DNA of 64,000 nucleotides from a virus, in the IMG/VR virus record IMGVR_UViG_3300036770_006954, positions 32,001 to 96,000 of that record. One strand, given 5' to 3'. The notes under the pieces were generated by a model. That model did not search any database. It was not told the origin of the DNA and saw nothing but the letters and a program-made list of their open reading frames with translations. Shown here piece after piece: positions 30,144 to 61,141 of this stretch. Positions within the stretch are counted from its first letter, which is position 1; each line of letters opens with the position of its first letter. A program made the position numbers and the translations under genes.

Positions 30144-30542
30144 CTAGCAACACGCTTGTTCAGAAATAAAACTATCTTCAATATTGATATAGAGCTCCTC
30201 ACGGATAGGGACAATCAAACTTCCTTGTTGTGTGCCAAGTAGTCCACTGTTCTTAATCAAAAATTGTCCTTGATATCTTCCAGGAGTATCAGTTTGTCTT
30301 GAGGTGAATTGATAATAGATATAATACTCGGTAGGCGCTCCTGGTTCACTTGGTATTAAACTCACAATAGAACATGGGGCACCCACAATTTTTGGAATTC
30401 CTGTTTTTACATCGACCATTGAAAAGAATATGGTGGCGAGTTCTAATAACTCCATTGTATCACCATAAGTGCTTCTACCATCTTGAACAACCTGCATCTT
30501 AAGTACAGGAAGAGTTGCGTTTTTCCTAATAAAGAATTCCAT
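30144..30542 (-). CDS. BppU-N-like Ig-fold structural protein
   Basis: 'FFIRKNATLP.L', 'YYQFTSRQTDTPGRYQGQFLI', 'PIREELYINI'; TATTTATC motif upstream. Confidence 0.55.
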   Translation of the reverse strand: MEFFIRKNATLPVLKMQVVQDGRSTYGDTMELLELATIFFSMVDVKTGIPKIVGAPCSIVSLIPSEPGAPTEYYIYYQFTSRQTDTPGRYQGQFLIKNSGLLGTQQGSLIVPIREELYINIEDSFISEQACC

Positions 30543-30560: not shown

Positions 30561-32231
30561 TTAGGACTCTTTTCTTAACTTCCCATCGTAGAATTCAAAT
30601 CTGTCGTGTTCAGTAGGTGTTGCAAACAACAATGCGGGTTTGATGTTTCCCTTTTTCGTTTCTTGATAGATGTGACTCATCCAAGTTTGTTCGAAAGGTC
30701 TATCCCACTTTGTGGTTAGGAACATTTTTTCATTACCATACTTCGTCACCACTTGTGGCCAGTTACAATAATACACCTCACCAATACCATACGCCAATTT
30801 TTTATATGAACGAACTTCGTTGAATTTGGTTCTTGGGGCGTTAGGGTCCAATCCTTGAACGGGTAAAGTTGGTTTTTCGGGCCAGTACTCTTCTCGGATA
30901 TGTTGAGGAACATTATACCAAGACCATTGTGTCCCATTATCACCATAAAACTCAGTAAAATTAAGTTTCAAGAAGTCCAAAGAATCTTTCTTTGCAATTT
31001 GAATAGATTTGTTGTATAGGTCAGGAATTTTTCTTATAAAACCATTTTTACAAGTTTCGTCTGCACCACCGTAAAAGAACATATCATCTTCAAAAAACCA
31101 ATAAAAGTCAAATTTGTTTTCTTGGGAATGTTCTGCAATCCATTGTCTTCCACCACAAATTCCTAAGTTGTCTTTTTTAATATGTTCGAATCCAAATTCA
31201 TCACACAACTCTCTATATCTTTCAGTTGTAGTTAAATCTGATGAATTATCTAACAAAAACTTTTTTGGTTTATCCAAAAAGTTTCTATCATACATTTCCA
31301 TTGATTTGATGAGGGTCTCAAACTGATTGGGGCTATTGAATGTGATTACATATAGTGCAGAGTTATCAATATTCAAATCAGAATAAACAATTTTACCCTG
31401 TGTATTTTTAACTTTATGTGTGTCGTTTTTGACATCTTCGCAAAATTTACCAATAAGACCATTGGACTCAATTTCATAGTAATCGAAAATATCGGGGTGA
31501 CGGTAAAGAAGAATACTAAATAAAGATTCTTCAGTACCCATCAGACCATCTGATAAAGTTTGATTCATTAGGTTGTAATAAAGTCCATTAACATCAGAAA
31601 TGGTGTCTTTACTACCACCGAAGATTCCACCACGACAAACCAATTTCACATGATTTCCCGCGTAATTGTTAATTTTAGGGTAAGTAAAACCATGAATTTC
31701 TCTTTCAGCGGCGTAAGGAAATGCAATGAAACCGAACTTAGAAAAAAGGTTATGAAACTTGTGGTGAATTTTATCGTGAGTAAAATAACCAGGATGAACC
31801 GTATTGGTTATGCCAGCATCAATCCAAAACATATGTGTCGATTCAAAAGAGTCAAAAATTCTCGCATCGTTAAGTAAAAACATTTTGGACATAACCAAAG
31901 GGTTATACATCTCCAAACGAGCCTGAGTTGATTCAGGTAACCAACCCGATTGATTAAACCATTCAGGATTTGTTCTAATTTTTTGAATCTTGTCGTGAAA
32001 ATCATTTTTGAACCAAGATTGGTCCCTAACGATAAATTGAGTATTTTCACGAGCTCTTCTTTCCCAAACAAAACCTTCGAGTTCCTTTTCCCCAAAAATT
32101 ATTAAGTTAGCATCGATTCGAAGTAGTTGTTCAAATTTATCTAAATAGTGTTGAAAAGAACGGGACCAACCCTCTTGAAGTTCATCTCGTTTAATATTCC
32201 ATAAACCTGTGACAAATGTAATATTATTCAT
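30561..32231 (-). CDS. Bifunctional HtrL/YibB-like + GT-A-fold glycosyltransferase
   Basis: N-terminal half 'ITFVTGLWNI..Y..KF', 'SKMFLL', 'FWIDAG', 'GGIFGG', 'GTEESL'; C-terminal half 'DNLGICGGRQ', 'FFEDDMFF'. Probable start MNNITF at 32231. Confidence 0.7.
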   Translation of the reverse strand: MNNITFVTGLWNIKRDELQEGWSRSFQHYLDKFEQLLRIDANLIIFGEKELEGFVWERRARENTQFIVRDQSWFKNDFHDKIQKIRTNPEWFNQSGWLPESTQARLEMYNPLVMSKMFLLNDARIFDSFESTHMFWIDAGITNTVHPGYFTHDKIHHKFHNLFSKFGFIAFPYAAEREIHGFTYPKINNYAGNHVKLVCRGGIFGGSKDTISDVNGLYYNLMNQTLSDGLMGTEESLFSILLYRHPDIFDYYEIESNGLIGKFCEDVKNDTHKVKNTQGKIVYSDLNIDNSALYVITFNSPNQFETLIKSMEMYDRNFLDKPKKFLLDNSSDLTTTERYRELCDEFGFEHIKKDNLGICGGRQWIAEHSQENKFDFYWFFEDDMFFYGGADETCKNGFIRKIPDLYNKSIQIAKKDSLDFLKLNFTEFYGDNGTQWSWYNVPQHIREEYWPEKPTLPVQGLDPNAPRTKFNEVRSYKKLAYGIGEVYYCNWPQVVTKYGNEKMFLTTKWDRPFEQTWMSHIYQETKKGNIKPALLFATPTEHDRFEFYDGKLRKES

Positions 32232-33105
32232 ATATGTTGTTAAATTCTTCAAATATTTTATAGAAACTTCTGTTTATAACAAAAAAATCCTCTTGTAATC
32301 CCTTGATTCCTGAATCAGGAGACCACCAAACATCAAAAAATTTTTTATTGACTAATTCAGGATGGTTAAATGAAATTAATGTCATAATCAATTCTTCATA
32401 TGGATGTTGATTATCTTCATCCATAATTCGTGTTAGGTAGTTGTCAAATAAATCGACCATTTGTCTCCATTTATCTCTGCGTCCACCGAACAATCCTCCA
32501 ACAACATGTAAAGACCTATCATAATTGATATACCACTTTGGATTCACAGTTCCCGACCAATAATTTCTTTCATTGTCCTTGGCAATCATAAAAAATTTAT
32601 CGCCAGTAAATTCAATTAAATTTTTCAACATTTCATTATTGAATTGATTACATTCGTAATACCTTTGTTCAATATGTTTTGAGGTCAGGTACTTATTTGG
32701 AAACAAACCAACGTGTGACAATCCCGCGTCAATCCAATAATAATAATCATAAGACCCGTCTTCATAATCAAACCATTCGAATTTGGCGTATTGAATTTCT
32801 AAACATCTATCACCCCTTTTGATTTCATCAACTTGTTTAATTGAATTTAATCTTTCAGAGTGTCTTGTTTTGGTTATATCGAAAACTCTGATTTCTAATT
32901 TTTCTTTAGAAATTTGATGTTGATTGTAAAAAAAGTTGATAAGAGAATCATATTCTCTTTCTGAAGTGTAACATAAAAAGTCGGCTTCAGTCATTTTTAA
33001 CAACGACAATAGACTCCATCTATAGTGTCCGTTTCTACCTGGTCTTCCTCCCAAGTCAGTACCATTTAGGTCACTGTAGATACATGTAATAAACTTAGTT
33101 TTCAT
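32224..33105 (-). CDS. HtrL/YibB-like putative glycosyltransferase
   Basis: 'YAKF', 'YYWIDAGL', 'VGGLFGG', 'YEELIM'; paralogous to the N-terminal half of the next gene. Confidence 0.65.
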   Translation of the reverse strand: MKTKFITCIYSDLNGTDLGGRPGRNGHYRWSLLSLLKMTEADFLCYTSEREYDSLINFFYNQHQISKEKLEIRVFDITKTRHSERLNSIKQVDEIKRGDRCLEIQYAKFEWFDYEDGSYDYYYWIDAGLSHVGLFPNKYLTSKHIEQRYYECNQFNNEMLKNLIEFTGDKFFMIAKDNERNYWSGTVNPKWYINYDRSLHVVGGLFGGRRDKWRQMVDLFDNYLTRIMDEDNQHPYEELIMTLISFNHPELVNKKFFDVWWSPDSGIKGLQEDFFVINRSFYKIFEEFNNIYE

Positions 33106-33830
33106 ATAGAAATTTCTGTGAAAATTTTATCCTGTTTAGTTTTAATATTTTGTGTAAGGTTCAGATACTCGGAAGGAATTTTGACTGGTGAATATTGGTT
33201 CCAATTATATGTTTGTGTATAAAAATTATTATAAACCCCATGTGACACATCTGACCAGTCACTAATTTGTGGTGCAATTGGTATTACGGGAGAATAACTT
33301 TGTTTTTTACTCATAATGAATTGATAAATAAAATCATCAATCGCATAATAACCCAAATTTTCTTTAGGTTCTAATTTCAAGACTTCATCGTAAACACTAT
33401 GGTGATAAATAATCATATTTGTTGCGAAGATACCTCTGTGGTGCTCCAATTTTGGTGGAAAATTTGTCAAATCCAATAAAGTTGAATATTGTTCACTTCT
33501 ATTAACAGGTCGATTTAGTGTTGGTGATAAATTAAATATACCGTAATCAATACCTTCAGTTTCGGTAGTAATTTTTTCAATAAGAGACTTGGCGTAGGGC
33601 ATAATTGAACAATCATCTTCAATCACCATTACCTCATCTAAACCTTTTTTAATTGCACTCTTTATTATCTCAATATGAGATAAAGAACAACCACCGTGGT
33701 CATTAGTATCTACAGCACTAAATCTTTCAAAGTCCCAACCAATATAATCCATTTCAAAATGAATGGATTGCATTCTGTCATGTCTTCTATCTAAATTGAC
33801 AACATACTTGTAAATTTTATTAATATCCAT
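33102..33830 (-). CDS. GT25-family glycosyltransferase (beta-galactosyltransferase-like)
   Basis: 'VVNLDRRHDR', 'FERFSAVD', 'GCSLSH', 'VIEDD', 'AIDDF'. Confidence 0.85.
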   Translation of the reverse strand: MDINKIYKYVVNLDRRHDRMQSIHFEMDYIGWDFERFSAVDTNDHGGCSLSHIEIIKSAIKKGLDEVMVIEDDCSIMPYAKSLIEKITTETEGIDYGIFNLSPTLNRPVNRSEQYSTLLDLTNFPPKLEHHRGIFATNMIIYHHSVYDEVLKLEPKENLGYYAIDDFIYQFIMSKKQSYSPVIPIAPQISDWSDVSHGVYNNFYTQTYNWNQYSPVKIPSEYLNLTQNIKTKQDKIFTEISI

Positions 33831-35077
33831 TACAAGTTTCCTGTTAGACGGTCACACCAACCTTTTGACTCAGAGTGTGGCCATACAACCCAATAAGCCG
33901 GTTTTTGTGTTGTTTGGAACTCTCTCCAAATTTTACAATATTTGTCGGGGTCATTCATCATCCTCGAGATTTCAGCTTTGTCGGCATCCTTCCTAAATAA
34001 TGTCGAATCATCAGAACCATGGAATGCTACAACCCAAAAATCATAATCTTTTTCGGGTACACTAGCATAACCCACATCAATACAATGCTTGAACACTTGT
34101 GCAAAATCTTTTTTCCATTCTTCCTCGTTCTCGTAATTGTATGGGTTTGGGGGGTAATGTTTATCAATGGTATATTGTTGGACTGCTCTTTTCTCGAACA
34201 AAATCCCCGCATACTTTTCATAATCTCTCAGAGTCCTTTCAGTACCAAAACCATAAAGTCCATCATGACCTTCTTGAATTTCACCATCCATACCAAATAA
34301 TTTTCTGTTGGTAAGGTGAGACTTGTTGTTTTTATCGACCCATTGCTTGTCGTCATCCCATTGCTTGGTTCTACCCTTACGAGTGTATTCGTGCCAAATA
34401 AGAACCTTATGAGGGTGAAACAAATCATAACCCCAAGTGTATGCCCTTGCAGCAATCGAAATTTCCTCGCCATGAAAGTAATACTCAGGATTGTGTTGAA
34501 CCTCAGTTGAAAATTGTCCAAGAGTAAATGCATAGTGTGCTGAATAAAATCTTGCGGGAACGGGTTCTTTCATATCCCTCCAACCTGGAATTGTTTCAGG
34601 AAGGAAAAACACAGCGCCCTCAGGGATGAATCGGTCAAAAACCATTCTCCAAGGTTCTTGAACTCTTCCTGATGGGTCATTATCAGGGTCAAATGATGAA
34701 ACATATCCTGTTAGTAGGGGCTTTTTATGACCTTTTTTTTGAAGTTGTTTAACCATCTTTATCATTTCATCATCCCAATTTGGTGCAAACCTCATATGTG
34801 AATCAATTTGAAGTGTGTACTCTTCACCCTCATAAAGTTGTTGTGTTAGATTTCTCGCCCAACAAACTCCTTTCGAGTCTTCATATGGAATATTTAAAAT
34901 ACGAAAACGCTTATCGTTTTCATATTCAGTCAAATCATCAAACTTGTCGTCAGTATGAAATTGTCTTGAGATTGCAATTCTTAAATTTTTAGGTCTTTTA
35001 GCGTTCGCTATCATATCCCTCAAAGTGTGGATAAGTTGTGGGTCTCTATAAGAGGCAATTTGAACAAATATTTTCAT
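33830..35077 (-). CDS. GT60-family polypeptide alpha-GlcNAc-transferase (Skp1 Gnt1/Gnt2/TcOGNT-like)
   Basis: 'IFVQIASYRDP', 'GVCWAR', 'LQIDSHMRF..NWD', 'YFHGEEISIAARAYTWGYDLFHP...WHEY'. Confidence 0.85.
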   Translation of the reverse strand: MKIFVQIASYRDPQLIHTLRDMIANAKRPKNLRIAISRQFHTDDKFDDLTEYENDKRFRILNIPYEDSKGVCWARNLTQQLYEGEEYTLQIDSHMRFAPNWDDEMIKMVKQLQKKGHKKPLLTGYVSSFDPDNDPSGRVQEPWRMVFDRFIPEGAVFFLPETIPGWRDMKEPVPARFYSAHYAFTLGQFSTEVQHNPEYYFHGEEISIAARAYTWGYDLFHPHKVLIWHEYTRKGRTKQWDDDKQWVDKNNKSHLTNRKLFGMDGEIQEGHDGLYGFGTERTLRDYEKYAGILFEKRAVQQYTIDKHYPPNPYNYENEEEWKKDFAQVFKHCIDVGYASVPEKDYDFWVVAFHGSDDSTLFRKDADKAEISRMMNDPDKYCKIWREFQTTQKPAYWVVWPHSESKGWCDRLTGNL

Positions 35078-35138
35078 TAACTAAATTTTTACAAAAAAAA
35101 TAAGTATAATGAAAATAAAATGAATATTCCTTTTAAAC

Positions 35139-35164
35139 AAAAAACCCCTCACAAAGGAGGGGTT
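35139..35164 (-). terminator. Rho-independent terminator after the mucin-like gene block
   Basis: Minus strand AACCCCTC-CTTTGT-GAGGGGTT followed by TTTT. Confidence 0.75.
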
Positions 35165-35167
35165 ATT

Positions 35168-36187
35168 TTAACAAGGTGTTTCGTTATTTATGAATCCGTT
35201 TCCATTTATCACCTCGAACGCAGATGTTCCATCTGACCAATAACCATCATTTACAGGTGTAGTCAACGAGGTATCTAAGAATAAAAATTCACCTGTTGTT
35301 GGCCCTTGTGGTTGTGAGCTACTTGAGTAAACATTAAATGTTGTAACACTTGTACAAGCATCAATTGCTGTTGCCCCTGAGGTTAATAGATACGACCAAT
35401 AAGATATTGTTGGTGTTGGTGTCATACTTGTTGTAGGTGTATTCGTCGGAGTTTCTGTTGGCGTTGAAGTAATGGACGCAGTCAAACTAACGGTCGGCGT
35501 ATTAGTTGGTGTTTCTGTATTAGTTGGTGTGTTTGTTGGAGTTTGTGTCAAGGTTGGACAAACTGAAATAAATAAGAAATTCCCTGAAGAATCAACTTCA
35601 ATAACAATACCATTGAAATTATAGAAACCTGTCATATTGATTGTTGCTGGTCCTGCAGGAACGTTCGAGAGTAAAGATACATCCCCCCAAACAGAGTCGT
35701 TACCATATACCGTAATTGGTCCATTGATATTACCACACGCATCTAATAAAGTTGAACCGCTATAAACACTGAATGGAGTCAATGCTGGCGGAGTTACGCT
35801 AGGTGTGGGTGTGTTAGTTGGTGTTTCAGACGGCGTTTGGGTTGGGGTTTGTGTATTAGTCGTAGTGTTAGTTGGTGTGTTTGTTGGTGTCTCTGAAGGT
35901 GTTTGTGTTGGTGTATTTGTTGGTGTTTCTGAAGGTGTTTGTGTTGGGGTTGGCGTGTTTGTCGCACTTGGAGTTGGCGACATAGCAAACGGAAAGGAAC
36001 CAAAATCTGTAACAGTAATGATTGTTGGCATTGCTGTAGAATAGGTACCATCTATCAACCAAATATTGCAGGCATGTCCTGCGGGAAGTAAAACATCGTA
36101 TACCCACATTTGATTCGAACACTCTTGATATGAATAAACACCATTTGAAGATGTGTTATTAGTTAAAAGATATTTTCTACACGCCAT
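35168..36187 (-). CDS. Mucin-like Thr/Pro-repeat putative virion protein
   Basis: 339 aa; Cys-containing module plus two TPT/TETP tracts separating repeated 'SG(S/A)T..DAC' domains; TATTTATT motif upstream. Confidence 0.75.
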
Positions 36188-36243
36188 TTTTTCGTTTTTT
36201 TAATAAATATTATAATATTTCAAATTATTTCAAGTCTGACTTT

Positions 36244-39200
36244 TTAACTTGGTGTGACTGTCGGTGTGGGTGTTGGTGTCACTGAAGTTTCACTTGGTGT
36301 TGCTGTGGGAGTTGGCGTTGGAATAACAAGGTCATTTTCTACTTCAATACCAATGTATATTAATTCACCACTAACAAAGTTAGTAGATGCCGATTGAATT
36401 AATCCTATATTACCCGAAGGTGTTGCTCCCGAGACAGTTCCAAACACAAAACCGTTATCTGAACCATTTTCCCAATACTTCAACGAATTCGAATCACCAG
36501 AATAAATTACCGTTGTGCCCGATTGTGTCATTGTAAAGAAAATAGTGTTACCCGTAAACTCAGAAAAATAATCTAATCGGTCAACATCATCTGAATCAAA
36601 TGAGTTGAAATACACTCCACTATTAGGAGAATTCAATAAATTCGGGTCCGTGATACCATTATCAATTATTGTATTTCCAGAAGTTGGTAGTCCTGAAGGA
36701 GATGTAATAAAGTTATAAGGAGCCGAACTTTGAATCTGTACATCAACTAAAGTAGTCAAAGTAATAGGGTACGAACTTGTGAGAGTTACCGATTGGCTGA
36801 CACTCGAGTCTAACAGAATTGTTTGATTATTCAGAACTGTTACAGTACCAGGAGGGTCCTGAACTCTTAGTGACGCTAATAAAGGTGTACCATTACCTGA
36901 GGGGGTTGAAGACAATCCAAGAGTGATTGTGTAAATACCCGAACTAGGATTTGCAGTATTATCAGTGTCAGCAATGTATTGGTTTCCACCACCTGCCGCG
37001 GGACATGGCCAAGGATTTTGTGGACCTATAGGTAACGAATTCACGTAGAATGTCGGTCTAGGAATACTGTTTATAGTAACATCGGTTATACTGGTAAATT
37101 GACTACAGTTCGAGATGTATAATTCAATTGGTCCCGTTGTTTGAGTTGGCGTTTGAGTATGAGTTGGAGTATTTGTCGGTGTTTCAGTATTGGTAGGTGT
37201 TGGAGTCTGAGTTGGCGTTTCAGTATTTGTTGGTGTTGGCGTTTCAGTATTTGTTGGTGTTGGGGTTTCAGTAGGTGTTTCAGTTGGTGTATTTGTTGGG
37301 GTTTCAGTATTGGTTGGTGTTGGAGTTGGAGTTTCTGAAGTTTCAGTAGGAGTTGGTGTTGGAGTTTCAGTAGGTGTCTCTGTATTTGTTGGTGTTGGTG
37401 TTGGAGTTTCTGAAGTTTCAGTAGGTGTTGGAGTTGGTGTTGTAGGTGGTAAACAACAATCAGTATCATAAACAACACTGACAGGTGTTGAACCCGATAA
37501 TACAACCAACGAATCTTTTTCGAAACAAAACTCAAATCTGAATCTTACAGTATCAGGATATGTTGTAGCCGTCAGGGTTCGGTTGTAAGTGTAAAGTCCA
37601 TCGCAACTAGTCATTTGAACTATCGTGTCACCAGTTATTTCTACTGATACAAACTGATAACATTCGTCCAAAACACAAGTAGCTGTTGGAGTCGGTGTCA
37701 TTGTTTCCGTTGGTGTGGGTGTAGAAGTTGTCGAAGTTTCGGTTGGTGTCGGAGTTGGTGTCGGAGTTACTGAGGTCTCAGTAGGTGTTGGGGTCGGACC
37801 ACCACAACAATCAAGAGCAACATAATATGCATAAATTATCCCTCCACCACCATCCCAATAATTGATGAGAACTGGTGGTGTCGATAAACATACTAGTCGT
37901 CCACTATATCCTGAGATTTGAACGGTTTCGGTTCCACCACTACAGTAAGTGAATTCCCAAGTGGCACCTGAAGCAACACCTCCGAACACCTCATACTCCA
38001 AACAACCCGCACAAGGTTGAGTTAAAGTTGGTGTTGGAGTTGGTGTTTGTGAAGATGTAACACTTGGTGTTGGAGTTGGTGTTGGTGGTGGTGAACAAAG
38101 GGCGACTTCAGTAATTTCAATCCAATTATTGTAAATATTGATTGTTCCTTCACATAGGCAAGTGGTAAATACTTGATAAGCCTCAAGGGTGTAATCAATA
38201 ATATTACCATTACAATCAGTGGCAGTAAAGACCGCAGGAATCGGTTCCAAATTCCTGAAAGTATACTCAACACAATTACATGCCGTAGGTGTAATTGTTG
38301 GTGTTGGCGTGTTTGAGGAAGTATTTGTTGGTGTCGGAGTATTTGATGATGTTGCCGTTGGTGTTAAATTTGCAGTGACACTAACTGTCGGACTATTACT
38401 CGGTGTTGGAGTTATGAAAACATTTCTACATGGTCCTACTCTTAAAACGGTTATATCAGAACAACTTGATGTTGGTGGTACACAAGCACATACATTTACC
38501 GAATCGAATTGTGAGAAAACGCTCAATCCAAAATAAGAAGGCCCTTGGCTCACAAAATTTCCGTTACAATCAACCCAATTAACGTTTTCACCACATGGGG
38601 TCGCACCCGTGAAATAAAGTGTATAAGTTTGACAATCACAACCACTTGTAGTCGGTGTTGGGGTGTTAGTTGGAGTAACAGATGGTGTTACTGTGTTACT
38701 TGGTGTTTGTGTATTAGTTGGGGTTTGAGTGACAGTGGGAGTCTGTGTGACAGTTGGCGTGACTGAAGAAGTAGGTGTTGGGGTTGGTAAATTACATCCA
38801 GCACCCAAATTAGTTTGTGTTGTTAAACAACTTGTGATTACACAGTCCCCACATATACAAACATAAATTGTTGAACCCGATGTGAAAACATTATCAGTAT
38901 ACTGTGGGAAATCTGATGCCGATTTAGTAATTAGAGTTCCAAAACAATCGATGTAACTAATCGTGTTTGAACAATTCTCATTAAATGTAACTTCAATAGT
39001 TTTACACTCACAAGGTGTTTCTGTTGGCGTTTGAGTTGGGGTAGATGTCACTGTTTCTGTTGGGGTAACTGTTGGAGTTGCAGTCATAGATGCTGTAACA
39101 GAAGGTGTTGGAGAAACTGACACACCTTCACAACAGTTGTTATAGAAAGAAGAATTCAATATACGGTCACTGTTTGCGTCATAAATTGTGGTCCCTGAAA

Positions 39201-41178
39201 TACAATTACCTTCCAATGGACCTAAGGTGACTGTATATGGGTATACACCCGTTGGTGACTCCAATGGGAAGAATCTGTTCCATGGACCAAACGACGCACA
39301 ATAAGTCATAACTGCGGTTGTAGGTCCGAGGATAAGAATATCAACGTTATTCCAACAATTAGTCGTTGCGCAAGTTGGTGTTGGCGATACTTCAAAAGTA
39401 TTTGTTGGTGTTGATGTGTTAGTTGGTGTAACTGTAGGTGTAGGGGTAGGGCAAGGGTCATCAAAAGGCCATGCAGAACCACCACCTCTACAAGGAGTAG
39501 AATATGAATTAACAGTTACTGCAGGACCACCAACAGTGCCTGTCACAAAACAATAATCGTCAAGATTATAAGTACCAATTGGTAAACCATCCAAAGTGAC
39601 AACAGATTCATCACAACAAGTCAATCCTGTAATAAATGCTGTTGATGCGGTTACAGTTATATTAACAATCGACGCACATCTTCCTGGTGGTGTCGGTGTA
39701 GGGGTTGGAGTTTGAGTTGCTGAATTTGTTGGTGTCGGTGATGCAAAAAACTGAGGACAAACCACATTAATAGCATCCAAGAAATTTCCACCTGCTTGTG
39801 CAGATGTTGCGGAAAACAATAATTGATAATTTTGTTCTTGTGCAACAAAATTAATAGTGTTAAAAGTCCATTGTCGGGTTACGGCAGTGTATTCTGTTGG
39901 GAAATAGATAAGACCTGTAGTTTGTCCACTAACTGCGACAACTAATGTATTTAAAAAGTCTTGTCTACCCATATGGGCAAACTGAATTTGGTATTGAGTT
40001 CCAGGTGTGGCGTAAAAGGCTTGAAATAACGCTTGTGGTGAGGCTAAATCGGCATTTACTTCGGCAAAATAATTACCTTCGTAGGCAAAATAATTTTGGA
40101 AACCACTTGGCCAAATTTCGATACTTTGGTCGGCAGCGGTGGTTTCCCAAAAAGGAATACAAAATTCAGGATAGAACCTTGGTTGGTTCGTAGAAGGTAA
40201 GCAAAATGATGTGCTTGTATTGAAATCTTCAAATGAAGTGTTTCCCAATCTTCCACAAGCTAAAGTTGGTGTGGGAGTCGGAGTTGCTGTTGGTGTTTGA
40301 GTTACCGTTGCAACAAACTGACATTCAGGAGCAGATGAGGCTCCTCCTACATATGTTCCGGTATTTTTGATGTATGTGAGACCATAAGGGGCAATTGGAT
40401 TAAACAACCAAACATCACCATTAGCGTTTGTTATGTATAAATCGTTATCATTTATAAACATTCCTAATGCATAAGGAATAGATGGTTGAACTATAAACTC
40501 CAACACCATTGCACCGGTTGAGTAGTTATAACCTCTTATGTAACCATCAACGGTTGTTGCATATAAAATGTTATTAGTTGTTAGAATCAAATCTCCATAA
40601 ACAACCCCTATTATATTGAATTTTGGCGTTACAACACCCGTAGTTGTGGTAATATCAATTTCAATCACGGTTAAACCACTTGTTGAAATCAATTTTGTAT
40701 TCGAAATTGCGGTCATACCTGCACCAAGTTCTACACCTGTTACTGCGATATTTCGGTTGTATAAAATCGAAAAAGGGTTCAGAGTAATATTATATTCGTA
40801 AATTGCTCCTGTGGTGTAGTATGCAGAATAAGTCCAAAGTTTTGTTGTTGTATTGGCAATATCTACACCATTACCCAAAATAGGTCCACCTAAAAATACT
40901 GATAAAGGTGTAACGGTATTACTCGAAAACTCGTAAATTGCACCCGGTGCTAAGAAAACCACACAGTCATCTAAAGAAGGTGGAGTAGTTGTGAATGAAT
41001 AATTGTAGTCGTATAAGGGTGAATAGACATCATAATCCCCAAAATAATAGGGGTTTAGGTAATTGAATGGGATTGTTTGTTCACCAATATCAATAGTTCC
41101 ACCACTATATGGGTTAAAAGTTACATTAACCGTTTGTCCGCTAAGATTATCACTTAAAACTCGAATTCCGACTGCCAT
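36244..41178 (-). CDS. Large mucin-like fibre/decoration protein with about 7 Cys-rich modules, propeller-like and CBM-like domains and TP linkers
   Basis: 1644 aa, about 10 (TP)n/TETP tracts; TATTTATT motif upstream. Confidence 0.75.
37135..37450 (-). repeat. Low-complexity coding repeat ([10 protein letters not shown])n
   Basis: About 100 aa made almost only of T/P/E/N/S; GT-rich imperfect tandem repeat on the + strand. Confidence 0.85.
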
Positions 41179-41213
41179 AATAATAAATACTCAATACCTC
41201 CAATTAGTTTTTA

Positions 41214-41780
41214 TCAACACACACCTGTATTGATAATTAATGTTCCACTTATTTGTATTATTTTTACACCATCCGAAATTGTAAAGTTTGCCCCAATTGG
41301 TGGAATAGTTAATTCACGATTACCATAAACATGGTCACCGACAGTTAATTGTCTAAAAGGCTTGGTTGAATACACAGTAACATTTGAAGGAAACCCTCCG
41401 AATTGATTTATTTGTTGACAAACATCTTGAAAATAACCACCCGTTCTTAAATTTTGGATGAAGACTGCTGAGGGGGTAACGGAAGGTGTTACAGTATTTG
41501 TTGGTGTTGGTGTTTGAGTGGTTGGGGTTTGACTCAAACTTACTGTTGGTGTTACTGTTGGTGTGATTGTTGGTGTTGGTGTTGAGGAGGGACAAGGACC
41601 TAAATTAACTATATTCAAAGGTGCCCCATAAGATTCAACCGTGATTGATTCTGCACAAATACTTTCAGAAAATAATGGTGCAATTTGAGTAATATTTACA
41701 CTACCTGTACAACCAGTCCATTTATAAAATCCCTCTTGTACGGAGTTATAATTTGTTATTCTATAGTATAGACAAGACAT
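41214..41780 (-). CDS. Small Cys-module + TP-linker protein
   Basis: 188 aa, same architecture as 35168-36187. Confidence 0.7.
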   Translation of the reverse strand: MSCLYYRITNYNSVQEGFYKWTGCTGSVNITQIAPLFSESICAESITVESYGAPLNIVNLGPCPSSTPTPTITPTVTPTVSLSQTPTTQTPTPTNTVTPSVTPSAVFIQNLRTGGYFQDVCQQINQFGGFPSNVTVYSTKPFRQLTVGDHVYGNRELTIPPIGANFTISDGVKIIQISGTLIINTGVC

Positions 41781-41791
41781 TTTTCAATCAA

Positions 41792-42424
41792 TTAGAATGT
41801 CTTGTTTAAAACGAATAAATCACTGTAAATATAGTTCAATGGGTCGTCGCTACTAAATTGTACCGTAATGTCCAAAGTGTTTGAAATTGTTGTATCAAAG
41901 TCTGTATTATTCGTTGTTTGAAAGGCAGTTCCATATACTTGCCCGTTTCCTTTAACCACTTGAAAATTACCATGACTAGAAATTGACCCTACAGTAGGAC
42001 CACCAATATTACGAATTGTAAAAAAAACACTCATAAACCAATTATCGCCTGATGCCGCAGGGTCAAAAGATGCACTTGTTGCAAGTATAACAGAACCTGA
42101 CTTAAGTCTTATTGTAATATCATCATTAGTATTATTCAAAACACCACCCATAATGAGTTGAAAACTATCCCCAACTGAAAATCCATTTGCGGGTACACTC
42201 AATGTTCCAACCCCTTCACCAATTATTGTTGTTTCGGATGTTGTCCCACTTACAGTAACACTATTTCCTGTTTGAGAAAAAAGACCATAAACTTGAGGAT
42301 ATGGGTTCAGTGAACCTTGTTTTACTCTGTATGTTGTACCAGATTGTGCAACGGCAAATTCCGCATTGGGTGTTATTCCTGAAGATAATAACTCGGGAAG
42401 TTGAGAAATGGGTAAATTTGGCAT
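41792..42424 (-). CDS. Putative tail-fibre/virion protein
   Basis: N-terminal 'MPNLPISQLPEL' of the type seen in fibre proteins, beta-rich body, TATTTATA upstream. Confidence 0.55.
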   Translation of the reverse strand: MPNLPISQLPELLSSGITPNAEFAVAQSGTTYRVKQGSLNPYPQVYGLFSQTGNSVTVSGTTSETTIIGEGVGTLSVPANGFSVGDSFQLIMGGVLNNTNDDITIRLKSGSVILATSASFDPAASGDNWFMSVFFTIRNIGGPTVGSISSHGNFQVVKGNGQVYGTAFQTTNNTDFDTTISNTLDITVQFSSDDPLNYIYSDLFVLNKTF

Positions 42425-42444
42425 TTTATTTTATAAATATTTGT

Positions 42445-45400
42445 TTATACGAAGTATTTCAAAACTATTATACCAGAGCCACCGTTTCCTCCCGCTCTTA
42501 CTCCTCCACTTGGATGTGAACCACCTCCTCCACCATTACCTGTGTTAGATACCGCATTAGCCCCTGTTACAACAGTATTTCCTCTTGCACCTGCACCACC
42601 TTTACCGTATTCAATTGAAGAACCTGTAATTGAGGATGTAAGTCCTGTACCTCCCGCACCACCTGAACTTGGATTATTAGGGGAACCGGCGCCGTTAGAA
42701 CCATTAGCGGTTGAACCTCCTCCTCCACCTCCGCATCCACCAACTGCACTACCCCAGTTTCCACCACCACTACCTCCTGTTGCAGCACTTACATTTGAAA
42801 CCTGTGAAAGTCCGGCAACTCCGACACCTCCGGGAGCAAGTCTACTACCTCCACCAGCACCACCACCGAGTGCCGTTATAGTGTCAAAGACTGAATTCGA
42901 ACCATCGGTTCCGTTAGTATTAACACCTGGAGTTGCGGCGCCACCCGTTCCACCTGAACCAACGGTGACCGTATATGAATTACCTGGAATTACAGATAAA
43001 ATTCCTGTTAGAACCATACCACCACCTCCACCAGCACCACCACCAGTATCGTACCCGTTACCACCACCACCTCCACCTGCAACAACAAGATATTCAACTG
43101 ATGTTACACCTGCAGGTGCTATCCAAGAAGTCGTACCAACAGTTGTGAATGATTCAATTGTTGGTGAGGGTGTTGTACTTGGTGTGGGCGTATTAGTTGG
43201 GGTTGTGGTTTGTGTTGGAGTTGGTGTTGGTTGTATTGGCTCTATCAAAATACCATTGGGTTCCTCACTTTCCTGAAGAATCATAAATAAATTTTCCTGA
43301 AGTAAAAATCCTTCGTTCGGTAAAGTACTGGTTGGTGTAGGTGTAACGCTACCTGTTGGAGTCAAAGTATTTGTGGGTGTTGGAGTTGGAGTGTTAGTGG
43401 GGGTTTCTGTCGGAGTATTAGTCGGAGTTTCTGTTGGAGTGTTGGTGGGACTTTCTGTTGGAGTGTTAGTGGGGGTTTCACTTGGAGTGTTAGTTTGAGT
43501 TGGGGTATTTGTTGGGGTTTCAGTATTTGTTGGCGTAGGAGTGTTAGTTGGGGTTTCAGTATTTGTTTGCGTTGGGGTGTTAGTTGGGGTTTCAGTATTT
43601 GTTGGCGTAGGAGTGTTAGTTGGAGTATTTGTTGGTGTTGAGGTTGATGTGGTTGTATTAGTTGGGGTGTTAGTTGGTGTAGAGGTCGATGTTACAGTTG
43701 GTGTAGGAGTTGCCAATAACTCAAAAGTGTATCCTGTTGTGAATGTATAGTTGAATCTACTAGTCCCCGAATAGTTAGAAGTTATTGAGGTGTATTGTGC
43801 ATCTCTAGTTAGATTTCTGTAATTGAAATCTAAAGAAGAAAATTCATAACCCCTTGTCTGACCTGATGGAATTAGAATTGTAACATTTTCAGTGATTGGT
43901 TCACCAACGAATGTGTCGAGTTGTATTGTAAATGATATTGATAAATCTACATCAACTGGCAACTGACTTTGAGCAATATAATTTGACTGTACGGACCCTT
44001 GATAAAATTCAGAAAGTAAATCAATGTTGTTTCCCTCTAACTCCAAGTAAGTTAAATCATTGTTGGGGATGGGGATTGAAATAATGTCACCATCAGGTAT
44101 AACAAGATAAGCTAGCTCTTCGTCAGGAATAACAATGTATTCTAAATCATTTGATGGTACTATAATTACACAATCAGGACAATCGGGATTTAACAACCCA
44201 TATTTCGGTTTCAAAATCCTAAAATTATGTTTTACTTCAGAGGCATCCAAAGGTTCAACATACATTCTAAAGGCACTTACTTCACCAATAAAACTACCCG
44301 CAAAAATTTCTTCCAAAAATATGTTTGTCGTGAGACCCGAATATATTGTATTATCTAAGTCTTCAGTTGTTAAACACTCAGGGTCTTGTTGATAAATTAT
44401 ATCAGAAATCTCAGGAGGACACCCTCCTGAAAAAGTAAGATTATCTTTGAGTCCTTGTGTACCCCCACCAACTGATATATTGAATGGTACACCAACTTGA
44501 CGCTCTTTAAACGTGTTTAGTGGTCTTGGAATAATTTCTTCAAAGTCTTCACATACCATCAATAATTTACCATTTACAAAAATTTTGAGAGTACCAAGTC
44601 GGTATTCTCTCTCTTGTAACCATAAGTCATTGATATGGACTTGAGTTGTTTTCGCAGGGGTATATCCTGAATAACCTTCTTCGTGGGTTATTGGTGGCAT
44701 TACCAAACTAACACTATTATTCGCCGAGGTTGCGGTAAAAACATCTTGTTCAATAACCCCTAAACCTCCAAGATAAGATAAATCTTTACACTCAAAATAG
44801 GCATTTCGTTCGAATACGGCATCAATTTGCACCCAGTGTTCAAAATTAATATAAGGTGTAAACTTACAATCTTCAAAAATACCACGGGTAGAACACCATT
44901 CTACAGTGGTCACACCAGTTACAAAACTTGTTCCTGTAAGACAAGTACCTGATGGTATACAACTTCCTGTAATCAAATATTCCTTTACACAAACTCTCGG
45001 GTTACCAGTGTCACCACTAAATCTGATTGACATGGCATTGGATACACCATCGTATAAAGGGTCCAATTCTTTAATTGATGCTTCGGTGGTACAACTACAC
45101 GGGCATCCACAAGTGCAATTCGACGATGTCACACCTGAGGGTTGGTATACTGGAATGCAATCTGCACCTGTTCCTCCTGATACTGCACAAGCACAGGTGT
45201 GCATACAGGTCAAACCCGAGGTCACTCTTGTATAACCTGTGTCGGAGGATGGACTTCCATCGGCGTAGTGGTAAAATTTGTTTTCAGCTCTACTACCCAT
45301 GAAAAAGAATGTTCCTTTGTTCTCAGGATAACGGGCATTTAAACCAATATTTGTATTACCTGTGAACTGATATTTCAATAACATCTCCACAGTCCAACCT

Positions 45401-46026
45401 TGACTCATTCTTGTTGGAAAAACTTCATAATCATAACCTTGGAGTTTGTAAAAACCCTGATAAAAACCACCTTGTAGTTTCGCCACCGTTCCGATGTTTC
45501 CACCGACATTTACATAATCCAAATCGTAAGAGTAAGAATTGTCATTCCATAGACGATTTTGGGGTGTGGTGTTTCCACTAATCGGATGCATTTTAAACCT
45601 TCGGTCGTAAACATATCTGTTGAAAGTTTCGGCGGTTGTGGTATAAAGACCTGTGTATGCGGTCATGGTGATACCCGACATTTGGGTTGTTAATCCATTG
45701 TCAATACCCGTTAAACCCACATCACAAATTTCGGTGGTTACAGGACAGAAGTTTGGGTCAACATCTAAAGGGTTATAAAAGTTTTCTGAAACAACAGTGT
45801 CATAAAGAAATTGACCAACTAAAGGAGATATGGTTGTCCCTGTTGAATTAAAATCAAACTTAAATGGCATCCTATTACCATCATCTTCAGCAATTAATAA
45901 AGGTGAGAAAATAACCTCTTGATGGAAGTCTCGGGCGTCGTCTGCCAAACAGAAATCTGTAATTTCATTGACAGGTTTTAACCCAATCTTCCTGTAATTG
46001 TATTGATTGATATTTTGGTATGCCAT
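42445..46026 (-). CDS. Putative virion protein: LamG/ConA-like region, long TP tract, glycine-rich C-terminal domain
   Basis: '[22 protein letters not shown]' (LamG-like), about 130 aa TP tract, '[26 protein letters not shown]'. Confidence 0.7.
43511..43618 (+). repeat. Three 36-bp tandem repeats (units 1 and 3 identical)
   Basis: gttggggtttcagtatttgttggcgtaggagtgtta at 43511 and 43583, variant at 43547. Confidence 0.85.
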
Positions 46027-48685: not shown

Positions 48686-49900
48686 ATGTCACAAATCAAT
48701 GTATTAGTAATACCATCTGACCGATTTGGTGTTGGAAAATTTAGGTCAATTGAACCTCATACTTTTCTTCAAAATAAATTCCCTCAAGACTTTCACATTG
48801 AAATAGATTTAAATCCTCCTATGGATGATTTGGACTTTTACAAAAAGTTTCAAATTGTTGTTTATCACAGAAGTATTACTAATGAATTCGAGAAGTCATA
48901 TGTACTTGTAGAAAATCTGAAGAAAATGGGTATTGTCACAGTGTGTGATATGGACGATTATTGGAATCCCACCAAGGACCACCCAATTCACGATATCATT
49001 ATTTACAATAAGATTAACGAAAAAATTGTTGCTAGTATCAAACAATCCGATTGGGTAACAACGACAACGCCATTGTTTGCGGATGAAATTAGGAAATACA
49101 ACAAAAATGTGTTTGTACTTCCTAACGCAATAAATCCTGATGAGGCACAATTCAAAGAACCAACAACAGAACATGAAAAACTTAGAGTAGGTTGGTTAGG
49201 TGGTTCATCTCATTTGTCAGACCTTCAACTTTTAGATTCTTCGTTTGCTAAGCTCAGTCAAAATTATAAAGATTTGCAATTTGTTATATGTGGTTTCGAC
49301 ACAAGAGGTACTATTACTGAGATAAATGCTCAGACAGGTGAGCACAAAAAACGACCAATTCGACCTGAGGAAACTGTTTGGGCACGCTACGAAGAAATCT
49401 TCACACAAAACTACAAGTATGTTAGTTCAGAGTATGAAAAGGTTTTGAAAAAATATGCTCGGGAAGAATATCCCGAATTTTCCAATGAGTCTTATCGTAG
49501 GGTGTGGACTCTTCCTGTGACATCTTATGCAAGAAATTACGCCAAACTTGATGTATCTTTGGCACCAATTAAAAACCACATGTTCAATCGAATGAAGTCA
49601 CAACTCAAAGTGATTGAGGCGGGATTTTACAAAAAGGCTGTGATTGCAACTGACTTAGGTCCATATACAATTGATTTGAAACATTGTCTTAAAAATGGCG
49701 AATTTACCGATGGTAATGCTCTTTTGGTCGATGAGAATAGAAATCATGGTGATTGGGCAAAGTTTATTATAAAACTTCAAAAAAATCCAAATCTTGTCAA
49801 AGACATGGGGGAACGATTGTATGAAACTGTATCAAAAAAGTATGACTTAAATATTGTTACTGTTGAAAGAGCGGATTTTTACAAAAGTCTAATTAAATAA
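48686..49900 (+). CDS. GT-B (GT4-like) glycosyltransferase
   Basis: 'CDMDDYW', 'VLPNAI', 'VGWLGGSSH..DL', 'LAPI..FNRMKSQLKVIEAG'. Confidence 0.8.
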   Translation: MSQINVLVIPSDRFGVGKFRSIEPHTFLQNKFPQDFHIEIDLNPPMDDLDFYKKFQIVVYHRSITNEFEKSYVLVENLKKMGIVTVCDMDDYWNPTKDHPIHDIIIYNKINEKIVASIKQSDWVTTTTPLFADEIRKYNKNVFVLPNAINPDEAQFKEPTTEHEKLRVGWLGGSSHLSDLQLLDSSFAKLSQNYKDLQFVICGFDTRGTITEINAQTGEHKKRPIRPEETVWARYEEIFTQNYKYVSSEYEKVLKKYAREEYPEFSNESYRRVWTLPVTSYARNYAKLDVSLAPIKNHMFNRMKSQLKVIEAGFYKKAVIATDLGPYTIDLKHCLKNGEFTDGNALLVDENRNHGDWAKFIIKLQKNPNLVKDMGERLYETVSKKYDLNIVTVERADFYKSLIK

Positions 49901-49910
49901 AAAAAAACAA

Positions 49911-50621
49911 ATGATTAAAACACCAATAAACAAAATTCTTTTTTTGGACATCGAAACCGTAGGTCTTGAAAAGAATTATGATGACTTACGAACCAACCAC
50001 CCGAGAATCGCAGACCAATTCGACAAATATTTTGATTGGTTTCTGAAAAGATTTCCCGAAGACAAGGAAATTAAGGAAGACCAAAAAAATATTGTTTTTG
50101 CAACTCGAGCGGCACTTGTCCCTGAATTTGCCAAAGTTGTTTGTGTTAGTGTTGCATTTGTGCTAAACAACGGGGAAGTAAAGAGACAGACCTTTTCAGG
50201 TGATGATGAAAACCAACTTCTACGAGATTGTCAAAATCTTTTGGATAGATGTGGAAAATTGGATTTTTGGTTATGTGGTCATAACCTCAAAAATTTTGAT
50301 ATTCCTATGCTCGCAAAAAGAATGTTGATTCAAAACATCCTTCCACCCTCCATTCTTCCTTCTTACGACACAAAACCTTGGGAGGTTAAAGCAATCGATA
50401 CAAAAGAGGTATGGCAGTTTGGTGCGTACACGGCAATCGGCTCGTTAGATTTACTATGCGCTTGTATGGATGTACCATCACCTAAAGAAGGTGAAGTTAC
50501 TGGTTCAAAAGTACATGATGCATATTGGAATAAAAACATGTTAAAAGAAATTGCCGAATACTGTGAACGAGATGTACAGGTATTGGTGGATGTAATTCAA
50601 AAATTAAAATCTTTGAAATGA
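49911..50621 (+). CDS. PolB-like DEDDy 3'-5' exonuclease
   Basis: 'FLDIETV', 'GHNLKNFDIP', 'YCERDV'. Confidence 0.85.
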   Translation: MIKTPINKILFLDIETVGLEKNYDDLRTNHPRIADQFDKYFDWFLKRFPEDKEIKEDQKNIVFATRAALVPEFAKVVCVSVAFVLNNGEVKRQTFSGDDENQLLRDCQNLLDRCGKLDFWLCGHNLKNFDIPMLAKRMLIQNILPPSILPSYDTKPWEVKAIDTKEVWQFGAYTAIGSLDLLCACMDVPSPKEGEVTGSKVHDAYWNKNMLKEIAEYCERDVQVLVDVIQKLKSLK

Positions 50622-51238
50622 ACGATAACCAAGATAATCTTGACGATTTAATCGACGCAGAATTGCAGAAGTTAATCGAAGAAGTCGAAAAATTAACTTT
50701 CAATCCTTCAAGTTCAGAAAGCGAGTCTGAAGATGAAAAAACTCTGAATAAAAGTTTATCAGAGTTGGATGATTTTATGGAGGAGGAATTTTTAAAAATT
50801 GAACTTCCTTTACACAAATTTCACCCTGATGCGATAGTACCTTCATATGCGTATAGTTTGGATTCGGGATTTGATTTATTCAGTACCGAGGAAGTATGTT
50901 TATTACCTTTTGGTAGGGCATTAGTACCAACAGGTTTGGCATTTGAAGTACCTGATGGTACAGAGCTTCAGATACGAAGTAAAAGTGGTCTTGCAATCAA
51001 TCAAGGTTTAATGGTCTTGAATAGTCCGGGAACTGTTGATTGTGGATACCTTGGCGAAATCAAGGTGATTGTTATGAACATGAACGATTATACGGTTACA
51101 ATTGAAAAAGGAACAAAAGTAGGTCAAGGAGTTTTGTGCCCCGTTTACAACGGTAAACGAGTTAAACTAATCGAAAAAGAAAGTTTAGGCACCTCGGACC
51201 GAGGAAATAAAGGATTTGGTAGTACAGGTTTGAAATGA
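50618..51238 (+). CDS. dut: dUTPase with an acidic N-terminal extension
   Basis: 'SGFDL', 'RSKSGLA', 'GTVDCGYLGEI', 'RGNKGFGSTG'. Confidence 0.93.
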   Translation: MNDNQDNLDDLIDAELQKLIEEVEKLTFNPSSSESESEDEKTLNKSLSELDDFMEEEFLKIELPLHKFHPDAIVPSYAYSLDSGFDLFSTEEVCLLPFGRALVPTGLAFEVPDGTELQIRSKSGLAINQGLMVLNSPGTVDCGYLGEIKVIVMNMNDYTVTIEKGTKVGQGVLCPVYNGKRVKLIEKESLGTSDRGNKGFGSTGLK

Positions 51239-55446: not shown

Positions 55447-55447
55447 T

Positions 55448-56675: not shown

Positions 56676-56677
56676 CT

Positions 56678-60157: not shown

Positions 60158-60163
60158 TAATTC

Positions 60164-61135: not shown

Positions 61136-61141
61136 TTAGAA

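Follow-up and report, generated by a model that had tools for sequence, protein, structure and literature searches.

A GT60 glycosyltransferase operon beside Thr/Pro-repeat fibre-like genes of a freshwater jumbo phage: a candidate system for mucin-type glycosylation of virion proteins

What would a phage do with a set of glycosyltransferase (GT) genes placed next to structural genes that encode long tracts of threonine and proline? The question is raised by a 64,000-nucleotide stretch of viral DNA (hereafter the window), which comprises bases 32001–96000 of the IMG/VR record IMGVR_UViG_3300036770_006954, itself 171,629 b long with a CheckV completeness of ca. 57%. A preliminary description of this DNA had proposed that an enzyme of family GT60 initiates O-glycosylation of the neighbouring Thr/Pro (TP)-repeat proteins of the virion. 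The analysis presented here leans towards that proposal: on balance, the GT60 operon seems to serve in glycosylating the Thr/Pro tracts of fibre-like virion proteins. The window, whose GC content is 30–43%, encodes contractile-tail proteins (tail sheath, 16294–19500; tube, 14823–15311; baseplate hub, 14008–14751), a family-B DNA polymerase (27240–30041) and PhoH, and its source is probably a freshwater myovirus of about 300 kb infecting a Saprospiraceae-like host of the Bacteroidota. Aquatic Bacteroidota jumbo phages with four core GT orthogroups have been described as 'moraphage' (PMC12619734); membership of the window in this group could not be established. The genes in question lie on the minus strand only, from 46026 down to 30144, in the order P0009, P0008, P0007, P0006, P0005, GT60, GT25, HtrL-like, tandem-GT and a further open reading frame (ORF) of 132 aa. 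Nine of these ORFs had been described before, and the coordinates and strand of all nine were verified. The features on which the argument turns are the following.

42445..46026, minus strand: P0009, tail-fibre-like protein of 1193 aa, TP tracts at residues 769–904 and 925–966 (178 aa)
41792..42424, minus strand: P0008, protein of 210 aa with no TP tract
41214..41780, minus strand: P0007, protein of 188 aa, two small Cys-containing modules with a 48-aa TP tract between them; matches phrog_15511
36244..41178, minus strand: P0006, protein of 1644 aa, about ten small, often Cys-rich modules with ten TP tracts between them (432 aa)
35168..36187, minus strand: P0005, protein of 339 aa, three TP tracts (133 aa); the last structural gene ahead of the GT operon
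35143..35164, minus strand: intrinsic terminator, AACCCCTC-CTTTGT-GAGGGGTT then TTTTG; 8-bp stem and T-run
33830..35077, minus strand: P0001, soluble GT60/PF11397 protein of 415 aa; predicted initiating polypeptide N-acetylhexosamine (HexNAc) transferase
33102..33830, minus strand: P0002, GT25 protein of 242 aa; predicted extension enzyme, variable among relatives
32224..33105, minus strand: P0003, protein of 293 aa with a single HtrL-like domain; homologues in bacterial cassettes, and 28% identity to ORF332 of phage XacN1
30561..32252, minus strand: P0004, tandem two-GT-A protein of 563 aa, N-terminal HtrL_YibB and C-terminal GT-A domain; conserved partner of GT60

The assignment of the initiating enzyme was borne out by profile search. 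The product of 33830–35077 (P0001) is a clear member of PF11397, with 230.8 bits (cut-off 21; E 4e-68) over profile positions 2–44 and 95–351 of 352, and it matched phrog_24687 with 564 bits. A Pfam scan of P0001 revealed no second domain and hence no ricin-type lectin domain; neither a transmembrane segment nor a signal peptide was detected in it, and NCBIfam provided no name for P0001, P0002 or P0003. In an alignment of 37 diverse homologues including P0001 (36 representatives at 35–51% identity), D92 and H94 of a DxH motif (D92-S93-H94, within 'QIDSHMRF') were invariant, as were E204, E205, R211 and H229. Possession of DxH instead of DxD sets GT27 and GT60 apart from other GT-A families (PMC7185993). 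The AlphaFold2 model of P0001 (predicted local distance difference test score, pLDDT, 95.5) consists of a GT-A core followed by about 110 aa (residues 300–415) that form a beta-rich C-terminal domain. Foldseek comparison of this model with the PDB returned top matches that were nearly all GT27 enzymes (E 8e-11 to 1e-8, probability 1.0), the best being human GalNAc-T4, T1, T2, T10 and T12 and Toxoplasma TgGalNAc-T3, with TM-scores of 0.45–0.53 at an identity of only 9–16%; phmmer against PDB sequences gave no sequence-level match. P0001 is a GT60 member with a GT27-like fold. Family membership and genomic context suggest that it would act as a retaining enzyme, transferring N-acetylglucosamine (GlcNAc) from UDP-GlcNAc to Thr or hydroxyproline (Hyp) of a polypeptide. 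The prokaryotic members of PF11397 form 4,517 clusters at 50% identity, and to our knowledge the GT60 enzymes characterised biochemically are all from protists. As a separate observation on the family, five giant proteins of 1,600–2,461 aa (P0131, P0132, P0134, P0141 and P0143) carry three or four PF11397 modules per chain.

The genes that follow P0001 were examined for domains and gene boundaries. The four GT genes abut or overlap (at 33830, 33102–33105 and 32224–32252), and their domains matched the order GT60, GT25, HtrL-like, HtrL plus GT-A, in agreement with the tightly coupled operon of the preliminary description. P0002 scored 42.2 bits against PF01755 (cut-off 24), aligning only over profile positions 68–135 of 199. 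P0003 had no Pfam match; hhalign (90%, E 1.4e-6) showed that it has the GG(F/L)FGG...EE core of HtrL domains. The N-terminal half of P0004, whose true start is, from alignment, probably the ATG at 32231 (residue 8), matched HtrL_YibB (PF09612) with 56.4 bits (cut-off 24.1) and the TIGR02192 equivalog with 66.4, far under the cut-off of 264.9; judged by these scores, it is an HtrL_YibB domain but probably not an orthologue of E. coli YibB. D145, in a 'WIDAG' segment, is invariant in the N-terminal domain, which has no clear DxD, and an EDDM motif is invariant in the C-terminal one. The P0004 model (pLDDT 90) shows two Rossmann-like/GT-A-like domains in tandem, and its Foldseek matches comprised LH3 (E about 1e-10), K4CP and LARGE1 (2e-9), Mimivirus R699, COLGALT1 and PmHS2; TM-scores of just 0.24–0.31 and high root-mean-square deviations indicate therefore a common architecture, not family membership. 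No GT with a transmembrane segment was found, and the only multi-transmembrane predictions in the 171-kb record were antisense frames of TP tracts. Since transmembrane segments and signal peptides are absent from the GTs and from the phage TP proteins, the reaction must be cytoplasmic, and the system would work like mucin-type glycosylation but outside the canonical secretory-lumen pathway.

To analyze the candidate acceptors, a stretch of 20 aa was scored as a TP tract if T and P together made up at least 60% of it and each occurred at least 4 times. Four genes were confirmed to encode long tracts of this kind: P0005, P0006, P0007 and P0009 together contain 16 tracts totalling 791 aa, made up of 311 T, 181 P and 59 S; Thr accounts for 39% of tract residues and Pro for 23%, against a background of 7.7% and 4.7%, respectively, in ORFs of 150 aa or more. 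ETPT is among the commonest tract 4-mers and TPTQ among the dominant units, and at the DNA level the tracts are degenerate tandem repeats with periods of 12–75 nt. Dense tandem S/T/P repeats, which mark the acceptors of mucin-type systems, are thus a property of four proteins next to the GT60 gene. The N-terminal part of P0009, about 770 aa, has a fold without assignment, and phmmer of residues 1–770 against PDB sequences gave nothing useful; the C-terminus carries a Gly_rich_2 domain (PF21722, 81.8 bits), and the PHROG matches of the protein are phrog_2295 and phrog_863, 'tail fiber assembly'. P0008 is a conserved companion of the fibre genes, with homologues at 51–74% identity in related loci. 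Elsewhere in the record there are four further TP-tract ORFs, three of which are plausible genes, so the phage encodes at least seven plausible TP-tract proteins. One of the additional ORFs has a 396-aa tract and another, of 292 aa, a 164-aa tract.

Genome coordinates 1354–3726 (minus strand), 4156–7179 (minus strand), 120952–121830 (minus strand), 136875–138866 (plus strand): further TP-tract ORFs

Assignment of the TP proteins to the virion was assisted by a short motif. TATTTAT occurs at only 27 sites on both strands of the window, and 13 of these fall within 45 nt upstream of a gene start; examples at 12096, 13859, 36209, 41189, 42439 and 46043 (minus strand) lie 11–42 nt upstream of structural genes. 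Genes preceded by the motif include those for the tube, the sheath and two giant structural ORFs, as well as P0005, P0006, P0008 and P0009 (22, 11, 15 and 17 nt upstream, respectively). From this distribution, TATTTAT looks like a late-promoter element of this phage. The earlier remark that the structural-gene motif precedes three of the four TP genes was upheld: P0005, P0006 and P0009 have it and P0007 does not. Read backwards, TATTTAT is the T4 late box, TATAAATA.

Conservation of the arrangement was surveyed in related phages. Near relatives of P0001 fall into more than 7,000 clusters when grouped at 90% identity, and they occur in at least 370 IMG/VR loci; this phage group is therefore abundant. 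Among the 66 related IMG/VR loci with at least 1 kb of flank upstream of GT60, a TP-tract ORF lay directly upstream of the GT60 gene in 53 and within 5 kb in 65, so adjacency is maintained among relatives. Many of these upstream ORFs had no BLAST similarity to window proteins outside the tract, and the tract is therefore the conserved feature within otherwise hypervariable genes. A P0004 homologue was found downstream of GT60 in most of the loci, with 0–6 kb of variable genes between. A loci search with the distant representative P0154 yielded just three weak loci. The P0154 phage lineage has a GT set of its own: GT60 occurs as two tandem genes, accompanied by genes for a GT29 sialyltransferase-like protein, a CMP-sugar synthetase, methyltransferases and a TylF+HtrL fusion of 1,233 aa. 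Large structural genes, among them one for a GP38-type adhesin, lie in divergent orientation to this set.

Cultured phages offered a comparison at greater distance. Megablast of the region against 50,697 deposited phage records gave no match, and a GT60 homologue was present in only four of these phages: Xanthomonas XacN1 and Xoo-sp13, and Stenotrophomonas CM1 and RAS14. XacN1, Xoo-sp13 and RAS14 share the order GT60, carbamoyltransferase, P0003-like, P0004-like, with a small extra ORF before the P0004-like gene in the two Xanthomonas phages; a P0004-like gene also stands beside GT60 in a TARA contig. In the same three phages the operon converges on a gene whose giant product exceeds 3,000 aa and has TP linkers; in XacN1 this gene comes after the baseplate wedge genes. 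XacN1 ORFs 330–334 resemble the operon of the window in having homologous GT60 (ORF334, 47% identity), P0003-like (28%) and P0004-like (41%) genes in the same order beside a giant TP-linker protein, and differ in the added carbamoyltransferase, in the convergent instead of tandem orientation relative to the fibre gene, and in the shortness of the TP linkers (25–35 aa). TP linkers of XacN1 are located in ORF325 and in ORFs 232–237. Structural proteins of this phage and of the XacN1 lineage share at most 24% identity. The GT cassette is better conserved than the structural proteins, and therefore moves horizontally, which makes the XacN1 group a largely independent case. Sites coding for PTPTPTP numbered 13, 9 and 7 in three GT60-positive cultured jumbo phages, where the reversed pattern occurred 0 times; none were found in 1.66 Mb of the GT60-negative phages Atu_ph07, SCTP-2, RSL1, phiKZ and phiCbK. 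XacN1 virions contain at least two Schiff-positive protein bands, for which phage GTs have been suggested to be responsible (PMC5852040); the same paper draws no link from ORF334 to GT60 or to TP tracts.

An association of GT60 with TP tracts was also looked for in bacteria. A profile scan of species-representative genomes yielded at least 548 loci, the best 80 of which were taken. A TP-tract ORF was present within 10 kb of GT60 in 33 of the 80; in all 33 the nearest lay less than 5 kb away, and in 13 it lay within 500 bp. Sixty control windows of 20 kb, situated 40–60 kb away on the same contigs, were drawn from 33 of the GT60 genomes. Tracts of at least 40 aa were found in 11 of 33 GT60 windows and in none of the 60 controls (Fisher p = 3e-6), and stretches of 40 aa with S/T/P at 75% or more in 25 of the 80 loci but in no control window of the 60 (p = 1.5e-7). 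The TP-positive loci span Gemmatimonadota, Acidobacteriota, Verrucomicrobiota, Acidimicrobiia, Alpha-, Beta-, Gamma- and Deltaproteobacteria and Bacteroidota. Their TP neighbours are typically proteins of 170–290 aa that start with a twin-arginine-like (Tat-like) signal (RRRLLQxLG, RRQFVxYL) and continue as nearly pure TPTQ/TPTE/TPTP repeats. A P0004-like gene adjoins GT60 in 29 of the 80 loci. Cultured bacteria in which the cassette has a TP neighbour are, for example, Ralstonia sp. 25C (L263) and those of the Achromobacter, Cupriavidus and Paraburkholderia loci. In two Gemmatimonadaceae loci (L227:8510–9235 and L229:9230–9955), the protein upstream of GT60 combines an N-terminus that by eye is PqqD-like with a long TP/TPS tail. 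A metagenomic contig of 62% GC (L092:1167–4860) carries GT60, a PqqD-family protein, ScmC (PF27840) and a second GT60; it looks like a locus for ribosomally synthesised and post-translationally modified peptides (RiPPs), a hint that PF11397 enzymes may glycosylate peptides.

Among the loci examined, the bacterial GT60 closest to P0001 was found in locus L217, a genuine Saprospiraceae chromosome with UvrB, NIF3, NAD kinase, Omp85 and OmpA genes nearby. The cassette of L217 consists of a sulfotransferase gene, a TP/SP-repeat protein with a type IX secretion system (T9SS) sorting domain, GT60 (72% identity) and a P0004-like gene (62%). This locus points to Saprospiraceae as the clade of the host, and to host and phage having exchanged the cassette; the occurrence of cassettes with GT60, a P0004-like gene and a TP-repeat protein in many bacterial phyla indicates that the phage took its own from the host clade or shares it with that clade. 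Sulfotransferase genes inside GT60 cassettes were seen in L217 (6349–8424, minus strand) and in a marine TARA contig (L090:3540–4151, plus strand), which suggests that the glycans are sulfated in some lineages. The phage record itself has no match to the sulfotransferase family PF13469.

A second set of sugar genes lies further along the window and could bear on how a primed glycan is extended. It is given below together with a minor neighbour of the GT operon.

48686..62946, plus strand: distal sugar cluster, all products soluble
30144..30542, minus strand: ORF of 132 aa after the GT operon, with its own TATTTAT 13 nt upstream; membership of the system uncertain

The first part of the distal cluster encodes a GT4-like protein, a 3'-5' exonuclease, Dut, a GT2_5+GT4 fusion, two GT2 proteins, DegT, GNAT and a GT10-like protein, and the remainder a CmcI-type O-methyltransferase, GT11, an Fcl-like reductase, a second DegT, a GDP-mannose 4,6-dehydratase (GMD, 408 bits) and a HAD plus nucleotidyltransferase fusion. 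Plausibly, the cluster supplies GDP-6-deoxyhexose and amino-sugar donors along with GTs for extension. Amid its GT genes, 49911–51238 (plus strand) encodes a PolB-type 3'-5' exonuclease and a canonical dUTPase with a 60-aa N-terminal extension. Family search of the 132-aa ORF gave no match. Outside these clusters, 23604–25130 (plus strand) encodes a 508-aa protein whose residues 1–225 form a complete Fe/Mn superoxide dismutase and whose C-terminal half has no assignment; TATTTAT precedes the gene by 25 nt.

Taken together, the data suggest the following mechanism. Tail-fibre-like proteins driven by the late motif, hypervariable and composed of small modules joined by long Thr/Pro tracts, would serve as acceptors. 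GT60 would place HexNAc, by homology alpha-GlcNAc from UDP-GlcNAc, on Thr residues of newly made virion proteins in the cytoplasm. P0004, P0003 and the GT25 enzyme would then extend this primer, and the GTs and nucleotide-sugar enzymes encoded at 48.7–63 kb may contribute. The outcome would be fibres with mucin-like, glycan-coated linkers, for which stiffening, resistance to proteases and adhesion are putative functions.

Elements of such a system have precedents. Priming of Thr/Pro mucin repeats by GT60 is known in protists (PMC8724618). The protist enzymes (Dictyostelium Gnt2/ModB and T. cruzi OGNT) resemble P0001 in belonging to PF11397, in the DxH motif and in having no ricin-type lectin domain (PMC7185993, PMC8724618), and they act on dense Thr/Pro mucin-like acceptors, which for P0001 are putative; they differ in being type-II membrane proteins of the Golgi, active in its lumen, whereas P0001 has no membrane anchor or signal peptide and carries the extra beta-rich domain of about 110 aa. 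GT27 polypeptide GalNAc-transferases of metazoans and apicomplexans, whose structures are the closest solved ones to the P0001 model, share DxH and prime S/T/P-rich tandem repeats; P0001 is set apart from them by the lack of a lectin domain and by a location outside the secretory pathway. Virus-encoded glycosylation of virions is already known from chloroviruses, mimiviruses and mycobacteriophages. Freeman et al. 2023 (cited in PMC12619734) reportedly found that mycobacteriophage GTs encoded beside structural genes put O-linked glycans on virion proteins. The sites reported there are C-terminal extensions of the capsid and tail-tube subunits, and the GTs belong to other families, whereas in this phage GT60 would be the initiator and the candidate acceptors are TP linkers internal to fibre-like proteins. 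PBCV-1 Vp54 and the Mimivirus fibrils also combine virus-encoded soluble GTs, nucleotide-sugar synthesis and glycosylation of structural proteins in the cytoplasm, as proposed here; PBCV-1 shares GMD and an Fcl-like enzyme with this phage, and Mimivirus R699 is among the structural matches of P0004. These giant viruses differ in having eukaryotic hosts and glycans that are atypically N-linked (PBCV-1) or, in fibrils, not primed by GT60. In Gram-positive bacteria, serine-rich-repeat adhesins receive O-HexNAc in the cytoplasm before export, and several soluble GTs extend it. This GtfA/GtfB system appears a close analogy to the bacterial cassettes with Tat-like signals, and differs in its GT4 (GT-B) initiator, Ser-rich repeats and accessory Sec export.

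The proposal that a GT60 initiator lies beside its Thr/Pro substrates is thus favoured by the family, the DxH motif, the fold, adjacency in phages, association in bacteria, the contrast among cultured phages and the staining of XacN1 virions. Joint transcription of the TP genes and the operon is improbable. The GT operon does lie directly downstream of the TP genes on the same strand, as had been described, and a strong intrinsic terminator sits between the stop of P0005 and the start of GT60; moreover, in the motif scan of the window, neither the operon nor the sugar cluster had TATTTAT. The operon is probably a transcription unit separate from the fibre genes, and co-expression of the two is only assumed, because of that terminator and the missing late motif. 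These facts weigh against glycosylation of virion proteins by GT60, and several others do so too. Placement of the TP proteins in the virion rests on the TATTTAT motif, PHROG names and gene position, and TP tracts are common as flexible linkers. The 66 related phage loci share descent and hence do not amount to 66 independent observations. No TP tract occurs within 10 kb in 47 of the 80 bacterial GT60 loci, the flanks of two short contigs from distant phages had none, and three short contigs with distant GT60 genes (L090–L092), too short to decide the matter, contained no clear TP tracts. A DNA pattern coding for TPTxTPTxTPT retrieved 47 searchable IMG/VR records, with PF11397 in 11, and many of the matches look like fragments of the same ~300-kb lineage, which confounds the pattern test with lineage. 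TP tracts occurring without GT60 would speak against a link between the two: related phages keep both (the 53 of 66 above), and five of six near-complete, unrelated TP-containing viral genomes have no PF11397, so that TP tracts alone do not imply GT60. The HexNAc (alpha-GlcNAc) donor and the Thr acceptor are predicted from eukaryotic homologues only. A literature search retrieved neither reports on PF11397/GT60 in phages nor functional studies of it in bacteria, and no biochemical evidence on a prokaryotic PF11397 protein. Finally, the Schiff-positive bands of XacN1 were not assigned to ORFs, and the TP-bearing ORFs are not named in the text of that study (PMC5852040).

Other interpretations of the locus were weighed against these data. 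The broadest of them incorporates virion glycosylation in a larger scheme: PF11397 and the tandem-GT-A protein would together represent an unrecognised prokaryotic mucin- or proteoglycan-like system, comprising Thr priming, disaccharide polymerisation by P0004, sulfation or methylation in some lineages and, in bacteria, export by Tat and T9SS, with capture by jumbo phages of several lineages giving their fibres a glycan of the host surface. This scheme is conceivable at best and rather doubtful in its full extent.

Action on the host surface and mere coincidence are the remaining serious rivals, each of them unlikely and neither ahead of the other. In the former, the cassette would be a host-derived auxiliary module acting on a TP-repeat surface protein or envelope glycan of the host and not on the virion, and its effect could be receptor change, superinfection exclusion or an altered cell surface. 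The chromosomal Saprospiraceae copy, the closest bacterial one (72% and 62%), does adjoin a host TP/SP-repeat protein, the GT operon follows a terminator with no structural-gene motif, and the GT25 and HtrL families are annotated mostly in lipopolysaccharide and lipooligosaccharide loci. Against this, the phage itself encodes its own set of at least seven plausible TP-tract proteins, the upstream TP feature is kept in 53 of 66 loci though the sequence varies, XacN1 virions stain as glycoprotein, and the record contains no lipid-carrier priming transferase, flippase, polymerase or GT bearing a transmembrane segment. A polysaccharide pathway dependent on undecaprenyl phosphate (Wzx/Wzy or ABC) was rejected, there being no real multi-transmembrane ORF in the 171-kb record.

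Coincidence would mean that the TP tracts are plain unglycosylated linkers and that the GT operon, adjacent by inherited gene order, has a different acceptor. The breadth of TP/PT linkers, the five of six TP-containing viral genomes without PF11397 and the many GT60 loci without a TP neighbour are in line with this, and the terminator and the different promoter class fit it as well. What speaks for glycosylation of the tracts instead is that the association seen in bacteria does not depend on gene order in phages and held up against matched controls (p = 3e-6 and 1.5e-7), that the cassette is 40–47% identical to that of XacN1 while the backbone reaches at most 24% and TP tracts are present in both, and that GT60-negative jumbo phages have no such tracts.

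Far less probable is a route by way of hydroxyproline, in which a phage 2-oxoglutarate-Fe(II) oxygenase would hydroxylate tract Pro and GT60 would add GlcNAc to Hyp. GT60 does include the Hyp-directed enzyme Gnt1, which acts on Skp1, Pro makes up 23% of the tracts, and the record has two PF13640 oxygenases (genome 164948–165244, plus strand, and 161630–161893, minus strand). These lie about 100 kb from the cassette and are weakly YhhC-/YbiX-like, and no homologue turned up in any viral flank searched or in 79 of the 80 bacterial cassette flanks; the route was rejected, since the oxygenases are distant and not part of the cassette elsewhere. The first of them, weakly YhhC-like, is situated directly upstream of a gene for a 351-aa canonical thymidylate synthase (164948–166404, plus strand), to which it is probably coupled in translation.

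Least credible of all, and rejected, is glycosylation of phage DNA against restriction by the GT operon, perhaps with the distal cluster: the operon does sit between the fibre genes and DNA polymerase B, Dut and the exonuclease lie inside the sugar cluster, and the C-terminal domain of P0004 has weak matches to TAGT (E 0.005, below cut-off) and to phrog_842 (T4 beta-glucosyl-HMC alpha-glucosyltransferase), but the one homologue of thymidylate synthase is a canonical ThyA, its 332 bits exceeding the equivalog cut-off, Dut is canonical, no Tet_JBP match was obtained in the ~57% complete record (the positive control of that search was also blank), the GT60 fold is that of the peptide-directed GT27 enzymes, and the bacterial cassette stands beside TP-repeat proteins.

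If the link between GT60 and TP repeats is true, it would assign a function to the prokaryotic PF11397 family and to its HtrL-domain partner, and it would extend mucin-type O-glycosylation to bacteria and phages, in the cytoplasm. An abundant lineage of freshwater jumbo phages would then build glycan-coated fibres, with a bearing on adsorption, protease resistance, adhesion to mucus and particles, and recognition by hosts and grazers.

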